Shown here in pieces: positions 413 through 37,683 of a stretch of DNA of 38,127 nucleotides. Below the pieces are notes generated by a model. The model was not told the DNA's origin. It made no database searches and saw only the letters and a program-made list of their open reading frames with translations. Both the position numbers and the translations under genes were made by a program. Source of the DNA: a virus (taxonomy: Duplodnaviria > Caudoviricetes); the IMG/VR virus record IMGVR_UViG_3300012347_000587, positions 1-38,127 of that record, one strand, 5' to 3'. Position 1 is the first letter of the stretch, and each line of letters starts with the position of its first letter.

Positions 413-436
413 AAAAAGCCCTTAATAGGGCTTTTA
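413..436. terminator. Intrinsic (probably bidirectional) terminator after the formyltransferase
   Basis: AAAAAGCCCT-TAAT-AGGGCTTTT hairpin adjacent to the stop codon at 437. Confidence 0.8.
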
Positions 437-1105
437 TTATGTACTCTTGCTACCGTTACGCTCCAACATCAATAAATCAGGTTTAAATATATCCTTGCCG
501 TCCGTGTTAGGCTCAAACGTGCTGTATTCCTTTTGCTGTGGGTTCTTGATAATAATACCCGCGTGAATATCATACAAAGCCTTTTCTAACAGCCTTAACC
601 CCATTGGCTGTAATTCGTGTTCCCACAATAGTTTTGCGGCCTTACGCGGCTCCATTGCGTACATTTTCGGGTCAATGAAACATATATCCTGGTACGCTAT
701 GTCGCCACGATCAATCCCGGAGTTAAGCCAAAACACTGTGCCGCCTGTTATAGCGTCACGCATACGAACCGCCCACTCAATAGAAGACCGGCCACGATGC
801 CGGGGCAACAAACTTGGATGATAACCTATCCAACCAATATTAGCCTTATATCTCGTCCGGGTGCCAATATAATCAAACGAATGCGCAGTTATACCCAAAT
901 CAATATTATCGGGCAATGTGCCCTCCTTTAACGTGCCCCCGGGTACAACTGGAATATCAAACAACTTAGCCATTTTCATCATGTGCCTATCGCCAAGCGG
1001 AGTGCACACTCCCACAATCTCAACAAACTCCAAACTATTGCACAACCTAAACACTTCTTGTCCAAAATACTTTGTGCCGCTTATAAAAACCCTTAATTTT
1101 TTCAT
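437..1105 (-). CDS. 10-formyl-THF-dependent formyltransferase/hydrolase (FMT core)
   Basis: YHPSLLPRHRG (HxSLLPxxxG) motif and GIDRGDI catalytic Asp. Confidence 0.9.
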   Translation of the reverse strand: MKKLRVFISGTKYFGQEVFRLCNSLEFVEIVGVCTPLGDRHMMKMAKLFDIPVVPGGTLKEGTLPDNIDLGITAHSFDYIGTRTRYKANIGWIGYHPSLLPRHRGRSSIEWAVRMRDAITGGTVFWLNSGIDRGDIAYQDICFIDPKMYAMEPRKAAKLLWEHELQPMGLRLLEKALYDIHAGIIIKNPQQKEYSTFEPNTDGKDIFKPDLLMLERNGSKST

Positions 1106-1629
1106 TTTCCTAAATATTTAAAACTTTGTACGGCTCGAAAGTGGCCTCCATAACCACACCCGGTTATTGTTCCTTTTTTACCTGTTTTCGTAATACTGGC
1201 GTTGCTCCTTGACTTATTCGCACCGTAAAGAATAGCATTAGTTTGCGTCCAAACGTCAGCGTTTCGCAAATAACCGCATAACTGTGGGTGTGAAGTATGA
1301 AAGAACGTGTGATACTTTCTTTGACAGCGGCCATTCCCTTCGAGGTGGTATTGCATAACCTCATTTAAAAATGCGGTTCCGACACCGGCACCTTGCCACT
1401 CCGGCATAACAACCAAGCGTGTGGCTCGATACGCGTTAGCAGTAAACATTGGACAAACTGCAACGTGCGCCACAAGTTCCCCATCTACAACGCCAACAAA
1501 ATACTCCGCTGCCGGTGGGTGTGGAAGGTCTAAATAATAATGCTCTTTAAACAACTTCCAATAAGTTCCGTTGACCTTCCAAACTTCAAGTTTGATGTCT
1601 GGCCGTTTCCCGATTTCAATTTTTTTTTT
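1102..1629 (-). CDS. GNAT acyltransferase domain, probably the C-terminal half of an ATPase-GNAT fusion (-1 frame)
   Basis: RLVVMPEWQGAGVG acyl-CoA-binding motif A; frame open from 1647 (KKIEIGKRPDIKLEVWKVNGTYWKLFKEHYY) with only a TTG at 1554 as first start. Confidence 0.8.
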   Translation of the reverse strand, partial: KKKIEIGKRPDIKLEVWKVNGTYWKLFKEHYYLDLPHPPAAEYFVGVVDGELVAHVAVCPMFTANAYRATRLVVMPEWQGAGVGTAFLNEVMQYHLEGNGRCQRKYHTFFHTSHPQLCGYLRNADVWTQTNAILYGANKSRSNASITKTGKKGTITGCGYGGHFRAVQSFKYLGK

Positions 1630-2225
1630 AATACTTTGGTATTTACATCATATACCCAGTCCGGTTGCAACCACTCAATAATATCATAGTGGCACGATAA
1701 CAAAACCACTTTCTTTCCTTTATTCCTTCGCCAGTTCTTAGCGAATGCCAACGCTCCAATTTTGGCAATCTGTCTATCCACTACGCTTGTGAATTCATCA
1801 ACAACGGCCTCGGTTGGTGCCTCGGTAACTAACCGAGCTAATCCCGCTCTAAATTGTTGGCCATTCGATAATGCATTGAATGGGCGTAACCAACTAGGCA
1901 CATCGCCAAGACCCACAGCGGCCAATGCTCCGGTGGCCGTATTGAAATCTCCCGATGGCAAAATGCAATCAATAATAGGCTTGGAACAATCCCAACCCGC
2001 GTATAAATCGTGAATTTTATTCTCTCCAAAAAACTGTTTTCCTATCGAGGTCTTACCAGAACCGGACGCGCCAACAATTAAACCAATTCACCAATCCAAA
2101 TCATCAATATCAATGTTGGCCTCAGTTTTGAAGCTTGAGCCGTCCTCGGCATTAAATAATGATTTTACTCTTTGCGCACGGTAACTTTCAAAGTTTCGTG
2201 TGCTGTTTTCTACTACTATTTTCAT
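1530..2225 (-). pseudogene. ABC-family ATPase without a membrane partner, interrupted by an in-frame TGA at 2088-2090 (pseudogene or readthrough)
   Basis: ATG 2225: MKIVVENS...DIDDLDW*IGLIVGASGSGKT (Walker A) ... LSNGQ (signature) ... VVDEFTS (Walker B) ... LSCH (H-loop), all in one frame. Confidence 0.75.
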
Positions 2226-2350
2226 GTGGTTACTACTTTTAATTTCATACCTTTTTTTTGGAGTTCCTCAAAGATTTTCTTTTGCTCCTCCTCGTTTTCA
2301 CAAATAACAATCACACCGTATTGTTGTTTGTATAAAAATTGCTTTGCCAT
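2222..2350 (-). CDS. 42-aa small protein, first gene of the ATPase/GNAT/formyltransferase operon
   Basis: MAKQFLYKQQYGVIVICENEEEQKKIFEELQKKGMKLKVVTT*; ATGA overlap with the ATPase start; below the ORF-track cutoff. Confidence 0.75.
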   Translation of the reverse strand: MAKQFLYKQQYGVIVICENEEEQKKIFEELQKKGMKLKVVTT

Positions 2351-2374
2351 ATTTATAAATTTAAGTTACATTTG
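2343..2374 (+). promoter_or_regulatory. Bacteroidota sigma-A promoter, antisense to the operon leader
   Basis: TTTG (2343-2346), 20 nt, TACATTTG (2367-2374), matching the TTTG-N19-21-TAnnTTTG consensus. Confidence 0.65.
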
Positions 2375-2376
2375 TC

Positions 2377-2478
2377 GTCTCACCTCATTACACACCAAAG
2401 CCCGAAAACTAGAGAAGACATGATATGTCCTCCGTAGCTTTCGGGCTCGTGTTTAAAAATGGGGTGAGATACTTTTTT
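2377..2478 (+). ncRNA. Candidate ~100-nt long-hairpin small RNA
   Basis: Nested stems TCTCACCTCATT/AATGGGGTGAGA, ACAC/GTGT, AGCCCGAAA/TTTCGGGCT, GACAT/ATGTC; starts right after the promoter and is followed by T6. Confidence 0.55.
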
Positions 2479-2489
2479 AAAGCGGGGGA

Positions 2490-2624
2490 CTATTTTTTAT
2501 TCCCGTCCTCCTGAGAAATTTCCTTAACCGTGGGCAGCACTCCAATATGATTAATATTTAACAACGTATAAGTGCCATATCGCTTTAGCCAAGTTCTACC
2601 ATATTTATCTCTTAACAACTTCAT
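2490..2624 (-). CDS. 44-aa hypothetical protein
   Basis: TAATG overlap with the tail fibre stop; MKLLRDKYGRTWLKRYGTY...EDGNKK*. Confidence 0.4.
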   Translation of the reverse strand: MKLLRDKYGRTWLKRYGTYTLLNINHIGVLPTVKEISQEDGNKK

Positions 2625-23051: not shown

Positions 23052-24349
23052 CGGCTTTATTTGAGCGATTAGAAGGTAATTATCATTCCTGCAGCCACGA
23101 CCATTTACCACAAGTTGAGGCAATTGATTTGAGCCGCTATAATGCCATTATTGACAAACTAGCCCAAGAGTTACACGACGGAACAGTAAGCCCATCCTTG
23201 AGCATTGAGAACTTAACGCTCCAAACATTTTCAGACTTGAATAGTGGAGCTACGGAAGGCTACGGATCTAAATATACTTTGTTTGGAAAAGATGCCGGGA
23301 AAGATGCTGCAGTATTACAAATGCAACAAAATATCTACCGATTTTCACACGCCAAAACCGTGGCAGAATTAGAGGAATTTAATAAGCTGCTTTATGATGG
23401 CGACCAAATTAGGCCTTTTAATGACTTCAAAACAGAGGTTGAAAAAATCAATGCCAAGTACAACCGGAGCTATCTTGAAACCGAGTACACCACGGCAAGA
23501 AATGCGGCAGAACACGCCCGAAAATGGCAGGACTACCAATCGGATAAAGATTTATTTCCCAACCTGAAATATATGACCGTTGGCGATGGACGCGTACGAG
23601 AGGAACACGCCGCACTGCAGGGAGTTATAAAACCATTGGACGACCCTTTTTGGAGTTTATATTATCCTCCAAATGGATGGAACTGTCGTTGCTACACCGT
23701 ACAAACTGCGGAGCCAATGGACAAAGGCAAATATGAGGACAAAACAGTACCTAAACAGTTTTTAGGAAATGTAGGGAAGGACAATGTAATTTTTTCCAAA
23801 GAGCAAACTTTCTTTCAGATTGCAAAAGCCGTTGGAACTAAGGGCACGAGACAAGCCTTTGAATATTCAAAAATAAATGTACCATTAATTAAGGCCTACA
23901 AAAGCACCAAATCTAGCGGAAGAGTAAATGTAAGTCCTTGGACTGATACTAGAAATAATGAGCTATTTGGAAATTATGGAACTGCAATCGCTCTGGCCGA
24001 TAAGGAAAGTTTAAAAATTGATTTAGTGGCTCATTTAGACGGTAAAATTATTCTAGGCAAGCCAAGCCCGGAGTATAGAATTAATGGTAAAATAGGCGAT
24101 AGAAAAACACCTACAACCTTAAATTATACTAAGACTTTAGCCAAAGCAAATCAGCAAATGTGCGAGGTTGTAGTTTATGATTTGTCGAAAAATGGAGATA
24201 CCATTGACAATGCTTTACAAAAAATCAGTAATGTGTTAGGCAAAAAATCTAAGGATGGGAAACCTGTACACGGCAACATAAAAGAAATTTATATTGTATC
24301 TGGAGACAGAAAAACAATAAAGCATTTTAAACGAGAAAAAGCGGACTAA
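23027..24349 (+). CDS. MuF (gp30) minor head protein with C-terminal CdiA-like nuclease domain; probably made as a portal fusion
   Basis: YMTVGDGRVREEH...DDPFW..YPPNGWNCRC MuF motifs; C-terminal SPEYRINGKIGDRK...KANQQ..VVVYDL; frame open from 23027, first start only TTG 23129. Confidence 0.85.
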   Translation, partial: KKKSSEKITALFERLEGNYHSCSHDHLPQVEAIDLSRYNAIIDKLAQELHDGTVSPSLSIENLTLQTFSDLNSGATEGYGSKYTLFGKDAGKDAAVLQMQQNIYRFSHAKTVAELEEFNKLLYDGDQIRPFNDFKTEVEKINAKYNRSYLETEYTTARNAAEHARKWQDYQSDKDLFPNLKYMTVGDGRVREEHAALQGVIKPLDDPFWSLYYPPNGWNCRCYTVQTAEPMDKGKYEDKTVPKQFLGNVGKDNVIFSKEQTFFQIAKAVGTKGTRQAFEYSKINVPLIKAYKSTKSSGRVNVSPWTDTRNNELFGNYGTAIALADKESLKIDLVAHLDGKIILGKPSPEYRINGKIGDRKTPTTLNYTKTLAKANQQMCEVVVYDLSKNGDTIDNALQKISNVLGKKSKDGKPVHGNIKEIYIVSGDRKTIKHFKREKAD

Positions 24350-24461: not shown

Positions 24462-24986
24462 ATGGCCAAAAGAAGAGAAGACGAGGTTCCTGATTTTTTA
24501 GGAATTGCACGCCAACTAAAAATTGACGTGGTGCGCTATGCTGCCATAACCGGACTTAACTTTTTTATTGATAGTTTCCAAAAACAAGGGTTTACAAATA
24601 CCAGTTTTGAGGCTTGGCAAAAGCGAAGTAATGACAGCCGTCCCGGTGGTGCCATATTGGTCAAAAGTTCTTTTCTTAGGAACAGCGTAAAGGTAATGCA
24701 GCAGTCATCGGATGCCGTTTTATACGGTTCCAATGCTCCTCACGCCAAAATTCACAATGAAGGTGGTGTTATCAATATGACGTTGACAAAGAAAGCGCGC
24801 AAGTACTTTTGGTTTATGTATTATGCCACAAACGATACTAGGTACAAATGGATGGCAATTAGCAAAAAGGATCATCTTACTATAAAAATACCCAAGCGAC
24901 AATTTATAGGCCATAGCGAAACATTAATGAGCAACTTAGAGGTTTGGCTTAAAAACGAAATAGAAACCCGATTTAAAAACAGTTAA
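24462..24986 (+). CDS. Virion morphogenesis protein (Mu gpG-like neck protein)
   Basis: WQKR..ILVKSSFLRNS..HAKIHNEGG..IPKRQFIG. Confidence 0.9.
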   Translation: MAKRREDEVPDFLGIARQLKIDVVRYAAITGLNFFIDSFQKQGFTNTSFEAWQKRSNDSRPGGAILVKSSFLRNSVKVMQQSSDAVLYGSNAPHAKIHNEGGVINMTLTKKARKYFWFMYYATNDTRYKWMAISKKDHLTIKIPKRQFIGHSETLMSNLEVWLKNEIETRFKNS

Positions 24987-24987
24987 T

Positions 24988-25500
24988 ATGAGCGTAACAC
25001 ACAACTGGACAAAGGCTTTATACAAAGAGTTGGCCGAGAAGACGACAAATGGAATTGCAGCCGTTAAATGGTTCGATTTATGGCACAATCAAGTGGGATT
25101 TTTAGAAGACGAACATCCGTTTCCGACACCTGCAGTGTTTACAGCATTTAGATCTGGAAAGATTACGGATATATCCCAAAAAGTGCAACAAGTAAACCTG
25201 CAGGTTGATTTCTACATTTATTTTGAAACCTTTGCGGATACGTACAGCGGAGCAATTAATGAAGATGCTGCCCTTAACTTCTTGGACACTATTGACGAGT
25301 TAAACAGACTTTTTCACGCTACAAGTGGGGAAAATTACACCGGAATGAAACGTATTGGATTTAATCCAGAGGACACAGGAAACGCGGGAAATTTGTATAG
25401 GGTAACGTATGAATGTTTGTATAATGATTACACGGCTTTTGTTGAACCAGGAGAAGGAACCTTTTCAGATCTAAACGTTGAGAAGTTTATTGTTGATTAA
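24988..25500 (+). CDS. Tail completion/terminator protein (gp37-like)
   Basis: VKWFDLWHNQV..FPTPAVF motif; synteny. Confidence 0.6.
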   Translation: MSVTHNWTKALYKELAEKTTNGIAAVKWFDLWHNQVGFLEDEHPFPTPAVFTAFRSGKITDISQKVQQVNLQVDFYIYFETFADTYSGAINEDAALNFLDTIDELNRLFHATSGENYTGMKRIGFNPEDTGNAGNLYRVTYECLYNDYTAFVEPGEGTFSDLNVEKFIVD

Positions 25501-37421: not shown

Positions 37422-37457
37422 TGTATGTGCAACTGTATGTGCAACTGTACGAGCAAA
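37422..37457. repeat. Three tandem 12-bp repeats
   Basis: TGTATGTGCAAC x2 + TGTACGAGCAAA. Confidence 0.85.
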
Positions 37458-37557
37458 GTATAATTTTATTAATTTGCTATAATTTTCAAACTATCCCATT
37501 ATGAACTATTAAACAGGCTTTTTAAAGTGTTTAATAACTGTTTAAACACTAAAAAAT

Positions 37558-37586
37558 AACCCCCATTTAGTAATAAAATGGGGGTT
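37558..37586. repeat. 11-bp perfect inverted repeat
   Basis: AACCCCCATTT-AGTAATA-AAATGGGGGTT. Confidence 0.7.
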
Positions 37587-37683
37587 TTAGCTATATTTGT
37601 CCGGGTTAATGGTAGTAAGCCGTTTAAAGCGTTTAAAAATGGTACTAGCGATGGAAGTTCAATGATAGTAAATAGTAGATAAA

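Follow-up and report, generated by a model that had tools for sequence, protein, structure and literature searches.

A phage ABC ATPase-GNAT gene with a conserved, probable frameshift joint and a linked formyltransferase, a candidate machine for acylating DNA bases

The last operon of a Mu-like prophage in the IMG/VR record IMGVR_UViG_3300012347_000587 (38,127 nt, analysed whole and hereafter called the window) runs on the minus strand and consists, in order, of an open reading frame (ORF) for a protein of 42 residues, an ABC ATPase frame, a GNAT acyltransferase frame and a formyltransferase (Table 1). Judging from patterns conserved across related loci, we are highly confident that the joint between the ATPase and GNAT frames is a programmed site from which one gene gives two products. 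By our reading of the cassette, the operon would encode a post-replicative machine that acylates DNA bases, and we put the probability of the whole mechanism (DNA-base acylation, a formyl donor and a two-product gene) at about 0.5.

Genes, motifs, family assignments, neighbourhoods and the conservation of both slip signals and of the end of the short product were observed directly in the window and 442 further loci, taken from viral contigs, genomes and annotated phages and including contigs fetched twice. Nine loci were dropped and 434 were parsed, with the joint in frame in 259, in the -1 frame in 171 and in the +1 frame in 4. The window carries a run of ten As (A10), and among the loci with at least six As at the joint the -1 offset is kept in 155 of 163, at run lengths of 6, 7, 9, 10 and 11. 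Nearly all -1 loci (169 of 171) have an in-phase slippery heptamer, which is A_AAA_AAN in 151, G_GTT_TTT in 17 and of another kind in one, leaving two with none; the G_GTT_TTT loci form a second -1 clade, from Firmicute phages of Streptococcus and Lactococcus type. Two marks of programmed -1 frameshifting, a conserved in-phase heptamer and a conserved frame offset, are present. In addition, the stop codon of the short frame overlaps the codons for the GNAT residues H-Y-Y-L in 36 of 37 -1 representatives, and synonymous variation in the overlap is 0.20, versus 0.44-0.56 in six flanking blocks (31 close loci). A-runs of such length have been documented to slip on the ribosome or on RNA polymerase (PMC3711429, PMC5009743), and either may act at the window A10. 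An earlier note on this DNA, made from the sequence alone, had suggested expressing the operon in repaired form; because the A10 break is a conserved recoding site and not damage, it needs no repair.

In-frame relatives carry another signal at the joint. Of 130 representatives at 85% identity (one of 131 was dropped for a bad anchor), 95 have NGG-RGG followed by three bases and usually by CTT or GTT and a pyrimidine. A Shine-Dalgarno (SD)-like purine run, a 3-nt spacer and CTT-pyrimidine are the geometry of the prfB +1 site (PMC12421855); unlike in prfB, the shift would leave the long frame for a truncated product, and the window has the A-run instead. Another 23, nearly all of Bacteroidales type, have TGY-CTT/CCC-Y without the purine run, and the remainder have T-runs (4), A-runs (3), a weak signal (4) or nothing (1). 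SD sequences are missing from mRNAs of the Bacteroidales phylum (PMC6847099), and the in-frame joints of Bacteroidales members have no SD-like run. Because this first count selects on the motif, we repeated the comparison by position alone, blind to the motif, using the 137 in-frame loci whose spacing is the modal 120 nt (77 representatives). In all 77 the +1 frame stays open as far as the H-Y-Y-L stop, versus 12 of 77 for a control frame, and its stop falls at the same position in 72; at 70% identity the +1 frame is open in 31/31, the control frame in 8/31, and the stops agree in 28/31. Leu is encoded by CTT in 49 of 52 and Gly by GGG in 35 of 36, and the purine run spans differing amino acids (R, W, G). 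All 77 representatives use TAT for Tyr, against 41% elsewhere, and 71 of 75 use CAT for the first His, against 38% elsewhere; these choices fix isoleucines in the +1 frame.

Both classes of joint predict the same two products, the full fusion and an ATPase whose tail of ~28 residues ends in I-[IT]-I. In a quick tree (103 rows), the SD-CTT state is scattered throughout, the A-run clade (support 97) lies inside a Bacteroidota clade without the SD, and the -1 clade of Firmicute phages (support 100) and a T-run clade (support 96) stand apart; the order in which the joint types changed is, from such a tree, a suggestion. Further types of joint occur in L413, L417, L439, L440, L390, L392, L406 and L412 of our numbered loci: T-runs or an A10 where the gene is in frame, GGGAGG without a heptamer in a -1 gene, and an SD-like run followed by 3 nt and ATG.

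PHROG 11143 is a single protein covering the ATPase (profile 1-194) and the GNAT (195-351), and Pfam detects ABC_tran (E 1e-5), Acetyltransf_1 (E 3e-7) and Formyl_trans_N (E 2e-15) in the operon products. Walker A, the signature, the Walker B D-E and the H-loop vary little or not at all across 114 fused homologues, the ATPase domain has the ABC fold, and the coenzyme A (CoA) loop motif of the GNAT is kept in 163 of 171 representatives. The predicted structure of a natural in-frame relative has confident ABC and GNAT domains (predicted local distance difference test 92, predicted template modelling score 0.87), and in a model of a relative's short form the tail (205-231) is disordered. In the window the gene has two breaks of unlike kind, the -1 frame change at A10 and a TGA at codon 46. 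This codon is glycine in all 18 loci at least 90% identical (some being the same contig fetched twice) and a stop in the window copy only, so that copy is probably inactive, or the TGA a sequencing error. An altered genetic code was ruled out, since 6 of 44 window ORFs terminate in TGA and the relatives have glycine. Private premature stops in the ATPase also occur in L003, L222 and L238.

The small protein can be placed by profile comparison. Because a profile of the small proteins matches the very end of the C-terminus in 64 of 81 long ORFs upstream in related loci, ParB_N is found in 9 of the 20 such ORFs scanned, and annotated non-Mu phages have ParB, then ABC-GNAT, with terminase close by, we identify the 42-residue protein on profile evidence as a conserved ParB partner module minus the DNA-binding domain. 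Searched against the PDB, the profile gave no informative match. The ParB-like partner adjoins terminase genes in several phages, and dependence on ParB has been established experimentally for phage DNA-modifying T-dioxygenases (DNA oxidases) (PMC13229309). In a clade without the ParB module (L377:3123-3506 and L385:364-786), an S-adenosylmethionine decarboxylase-like gene lies upstream of ABC-GNAT and Cpn10 downstream.

When compared with the PDB, the formyltransferase family profile is closest to the FDH/ALDH1L1 domain (E 3e-45, 157 bits), ahead of Fmt (1e-28, 103 bits) and PurN (1e-16 or weaker, at most 64 bits), and comparison of the window protein as a single sequence also gives the FDH type. 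Its His-Ser-Asp triad, invariant in 43 formyltransferase sequences, is shared with the FDH/ALDH1L1 N-terminal domain and HypX, its best structural-sequence relatives; unlike them, the cassette enzyme stands alone, with 150-230 residues and no carrier or dehydrogenase domain. The FDH domain moves formyl to a phosphopantetheine thiol, and formyl-CoA has been proposed, not shown, for HypX (PMC6802093); by analogy, the cassette enzyme would pass formyl to a pantetheine thiol.

We counted possible donor genes within 2.5 kb in 171 representatives, using profiles built from the same loci. A formyltransferase is present in 89 and a CoA-transferase-III-like gene in 13 (9 with PanD), and the two never occur together. 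In L253:3954-5062, L355:3478-4513 and L365:2576-3588, a PanD-like decarboxylase and a short (~223-residue) class III CoA-transferase-like gene occupy the formyltransferase slot, a pair that could supply beta-alanyl-CoA or another acyl-CoA. Because the FDH type formylates a phosphopantetheine thiol and a CoA-transferase (plus PanD) substitutes for it in one clade, the slot likely supplies an acyl-CoA, with formyl as the acyl group in the window cassette. The co-conservation of formyltransferase and ABC-GNAT, proposed earlier as a check, holds for the Mu-like form with the small gene (58 of 64 untruncated representatives) but not for the ParB type, in which a formyltransferase follows in only 22 of 78; it is an accessory to ABC-GNAT.

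Upstream of the small gene lies a structured leader whose pairings 1:2 and 3:4 compete with pairing 2:3. Of the 161 A-run loci whose upstream DNA was long enough, 94 have the leader motif, whereas none of 263 other loci has it, and it remains at the operon head where a C5 methylase has been inserted before the small gene. Aligning 45 of the 48 distinct copies (three were left out; the copies include window 2343-2511 and L001:4701-4859), we found the apex helix kept with G-U pairs on the sense strand, and the 2:3 pairing, between the upstream segment and the apex, lengthening with matched changes. No Rfam family was found in a scan of the leader. On the opposite strand, the predicted promoter has TAnnTTTG at the antisense position in 44 of 45 leaders, against a background of 0.08 per 105 nt, and, in 33 of 45, an upstream TTTG that we take to be the -33 box. 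TAnnTTTG is the Bacteroidota -7 consensus (PMC9723704). An antisense RNA of ~100 nt and an attenuator-like switch may together hold the operon off.

The target of the cassette is probably DNA, and a DNA base is our best inference, because acylation of a DNA nucleobase by an ABC ATPase with a GNAT has already been predicted (Iyer 2013, as cited in PMC7824862), and because of the ParB partner, the late position, the ASCH neighbours and the linkage to a C5 methylase. ASCH neighbours are present in 4 of 171 representatives, and the E. coli ASCH protein YqfB hydrolyses N4-acylcytosines (PMC6972931). The C5 methylase stands behind the same leader in L008, L009, L014, L139, L170 and L171 (three Pfam-confirmed), and C5-methylase N-terminal sequence starts just downstream in L005 and L164. 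In the mechanism that we propose, the FDH-type formyltransferase would move formyl from 10-formyl-tetrahydrofolate to the CoA thiol, and the GNAT-ABC ATPase fusion would place it on an exocyclic amine in phage DNA, probably blocking host restriction. The window lineage would make the short ATPase by default and the fusion when the ribosome or RNA polymerase slips by -1 on the A-run; most of the family would make the fusion by default and the short form by a prfB-like +1 slip. Most likely the short ATPase and the fusion pair as an ATP-gated ABC dimer, for which the small module derived from ParB would serve as adaptor, and the leader, under antisense control, likely silences the operon in the lysogen. 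More tentatively, and with less than even odds, we can imagine an asymmetric ABC machine that formylates a DNA base with formyl-CoA, both of whose subunits come from one gene and are needed so strongly that the frameshift was rebuilt repeatedly in opposite directions. The prfB-like +1 exit would then likely be ancestral, giving way to -1 entries in phages of Bacteroidota and Firmicutes and to T-runs in other lineages, with the I-[IT]-I tail constant throughout and other clades swapping the acyl group through CoA-transferase and PanD.

Several observations weigh against this mechanism. For the recoding, eight of the 163 A-run loci are in frame 0 or +1, all counts come from related sequences, so that events are not independent, and the sequence downstream of the two slip signals showed no stimulatory RNA structure (folding z averaging -0.33 in 31 representatives), although such a structure is dispensable if the slippage is by polymerase. 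In place of the prfB-type stop codon, in-frame relatives have sense codons (CGG, TGG, CGA, CAA, AGG) in the A site. The Mu-like form has lost the ParB DNA-binding domain. As to the donor, formyl is not universal, because 65 of 171 representatives (13 of the 65 on short contigs) lack any formyltransferase, CoA-transferase, PanD or ASCH gene within 2.5 kb; the CoA-transferase loci are one clade, possibly a single event. Mom, the best-studied analogue, uses Gly-tRNA, not CoA, and N6-acyl adenine was found unstable (PMC13219725); a non-CoA donor thus stays possible, and adenine is no likelier an acceptor than cytosine N4 or guanine N2. The mechanism is also a prediction throughout, drawn from sequences.

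Other explanations of the cassette differ in what they make of the target and the formyltransferase. The target might be a host protein or an aminoacyl-tRNA, modified for takeover or anti-defence, which we regard as unlikely. Phage GNATs that acetylate RNA polymerase are known (PMC7824862), GNAT toxins acetylate aminoacyl-tRNA, toxicity would suit tight control, and a Porphyromonas phage record labels the small gene 'acr candidate'; the ParB partner, the late position by terminase or at the mom position, the leader shared with the C5 methylase and the ASCH neighbours speak for DNA instead. We give low odds to a two-step modification of the base, in which the GNAT adds an aminoacyl group, from an acyl-CoA or, as in Mom, from an aminoacyl-tRNA, and the formyltransferase N-formylates the new free amine. 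PanD, which makes beta-alanine, adjoins the CoA-transferase in 9 loci, and N-formyltransferases are the majority of formyltransferases in the PDB match list. Mom does take its glycine from tRNA (PMC13219725). The enzyme is nevertheless far nearer the thiol-formylating FDH domain (157 bits) than any N-formyltransferase (at most 103 bits), and the CoA loop of the GNAT is retained.

We consider it highly improbable that the A-run switches the gene ON and OFF by phase variation, or stems from misassembly, and that the in-frame class yields a single protein. A-runs of 9-11 are mutable, and the eight A-run loci in other frames would fit, but the -1 frame dominates at five run lengths, 6 and 7 included, synonymous sites in the overlap are constrained, the alternative frame of the in-frame genes is open in 77/77, and a contig from an independent run crosses the A-run with no gap. 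Among the sequencing runs listed as matching, none was of RNA and all shares were 0.20 or less, and the contigs of four runs examined come from relatives. Somewhat less remote, though still improbable, is that the formyltransferase is an unlinked metabolic gene, a 10-formyl-tetrahydrofolate hydrolase or a support of purine synthesis, with the GNAT using acetyl-CoA. The isolated FDH domain does show hydrolase activity (PMC4388273), and the gene is missing in 56 of 78 untruncated ParB-type representatives; against this, its start overlaps the GNAT stop in the window, and it comes after the GNAT in 58 of 64 small-gene representatives and in phages of both Bacteroidota and Pseudomonadota hosts.

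The setting described in the earlier note is largely borne out. A Mu-like prophage spans the window (rve transposase, Mu portal, Mu F, gp36 and protease I detected by Pfam), and the nearest kin of the window ATPase, at 92-97% identity, sit in Flavobacterium genomes. The operon does follow the tail-fibre gene (5809-2624) and lies at the phage end, similarity in an alignment with 11 relatives stopping at about position 320, and the ATGA overlaps at 2222-2225 and 1102-1105 are present on the minus strand. Its four units are real as reading frames, but the genes number three, because ATPase and GNAT form a single recoded gene. The terminator placed after them can be seen as a hairpin with a T-run at 435-413 but was not called by the terminator scan. 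The window indeed holds no permease, nor was one found among 70 scanned downstream genes other than formyltransferase, and assignment to transporters was rejected for lack of a linked permease. PADLOC returned nothing on the cassette beyond a weak ABC-motif match. Elsewhere in the window, the Mu F head protein (23129-24349) bears a C-terminal CdiA_C-like domain (Pfam E 1e-7) and is followed by 24462-25500, resembling the MuF polymorphic toxin arrangement, and a short tandem repeat (37424-37450) lies by the probable opposite phage end, with palindromic sequence after it at 37515-37590.

Table 1. Features of the cassette and its flanks, in window coordinates
Feature	Position	Strand	Basis
Terminator-like hairpin and T-run	413..435	-	Visible in the sequence; no call by terminator scan
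Formyltransferase of FDH/ALDH1L1 N-terminal type, catalytic His96, Ser98 and Asp132 intact	437..1105	-	Family profile against PDB; invariant residues
GNAT acyltransferase domain of the ~374-residue long product, CoA-binding loop motif intact	1102..1619	-	Pfam, motif count, model
Predicted dual-coding stretch, tail of short ATPase and start of GNAT	1530..1619	-	Lowered synonymous variation; conserved short-frame stop
ABC ATPase frame (short product, 231 residues, C-terminus S-I-I-I-stop)	1530..2225	-	Pfam and motifs; TGA at codon 46 in window copy
Putative A10 slip site, in-phase A_AAA_AAA, joining ATPase to GNAT in the -1 frame	1620..1629	-	Offset conserved among A-run loci
Premature TGA immediately before Walker A	2088..2090	-	Single locus with a stop at that column
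42-residue protein, stand-alone C-terminal module of a ParB-like protein; likely adaptor	2222..2350	-	Profile matches; phrog_28816
Predicted antisense Bacteroidota promoter, TTTG-N20-TAnnTTTG, aimed back through the leader hairpin	2343..2374	+	Box conservation
Structured leader: segment 1 (2511-2505), segment 2 (2490-2482), long hairpin (2469-2378) with apex of segments 3 (2433-2427) and 4 (2419-2414)	2378..2511	-	Fold z -6.9

Among known systems, Mom of phage Mu resembles the window cassette in its place in the last operon before the phage end, its GNAT fold, its small overlapping upstream gene and its tightly controlled expression. No likeness of the GNAT itself to Mom was detected (hhalign probability 0.2%, BLAST E 0.58), and assignment to the Mom family was rejected, as there is no sequence or profile likeness and Pfam Mom matches only 2 of 114 members (E 0.002). 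TmcA/NAT10, an ATP-dependent GNAT that acts on a nucleobase, shares this with the predicted role of the cassette, but its ATPase is helicase-like and that of the window family is ABC-fold; nor is a TmcA-type Pfam domain among the 25 commonest families of the 114 members, and this assignment too was rejected. Mom differs further in being a single enzyme that uses Gly-tRNA, without an ATPase (PMC13219725), and the window small gene is a ParB C-terminal module, not Com. The canonical CoA loop of the GNAT leans against Gly-tRNA as donor.

The ABC-GNAT system of Iyer, Zhang, Burroughs and Aravind, represented by Tenacibaculum phage pT24, is a homologue of the cassette: the window ATPase is 46% identical to it (E 4e-25), with the same domain order and predicted role. 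The idea of a novel modification system stands in part, in that the DNA-base reading is favoured, but DNA acylation by ABC-GNAT is already predicted in print (PMC7824862, Iyer 2013). As that system is described in PMC7824862, no formyltransferase, donor slot, short product or frameshift is named, and the 2013 paper may cover some of the neighbours. The pT24 gene (L243:3836-5008), the published example, is annotated as two ORFs and has a same-frame stop within its GNAT part. Literature searches on the cassette, its recoding and formylation, whose reach did not extend to Iyer 2013 itself, returned no description of the leader, the frameshift or the link to a formyltransferase. Neither 'GNAT' nor 'acetyltransferase' occurs in the main text of PMC3711429; the cluster tables in its supplement could also matter for novelty. 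The production of a short and a longer ATPase from one gene, by a mechanism that varies by lineage, also recalls dnaX tau/gamma (A_AAA_AAG ribosomal, A9-A10 transcriptional; PMC3711429, PMC5009743). Unlike in dnaX, the default product flips by lineage (+1 out versus -1 in), the last residues of the short product are selected, and a downstream hairpin was not found.

The cassette is a real and widespread form of the already predicted ABC-GNAT system, and our analysis turns a long-standing prediction into a specific test of the donor, formyl-CoA. Culturable phages also carry intact cassettes: Komp_PAO1_1 and phiE255 are of the formyltransferase type, Gordonia/Rhodococcus phage Jace has PanD and the CoA-transferase, and Lactococcus P335 has no donor gene. 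Cloning the annotated ORFs could fail, as both products may be needed and annotation often lists the GNAT half as a short ORF of its own. If the mechanism is true, it would add an acylated base to DNA and a rare prfB-type +1 signal outside prfB, and the family would offer a natural series in which recoding in opposite directions gives the same two products.

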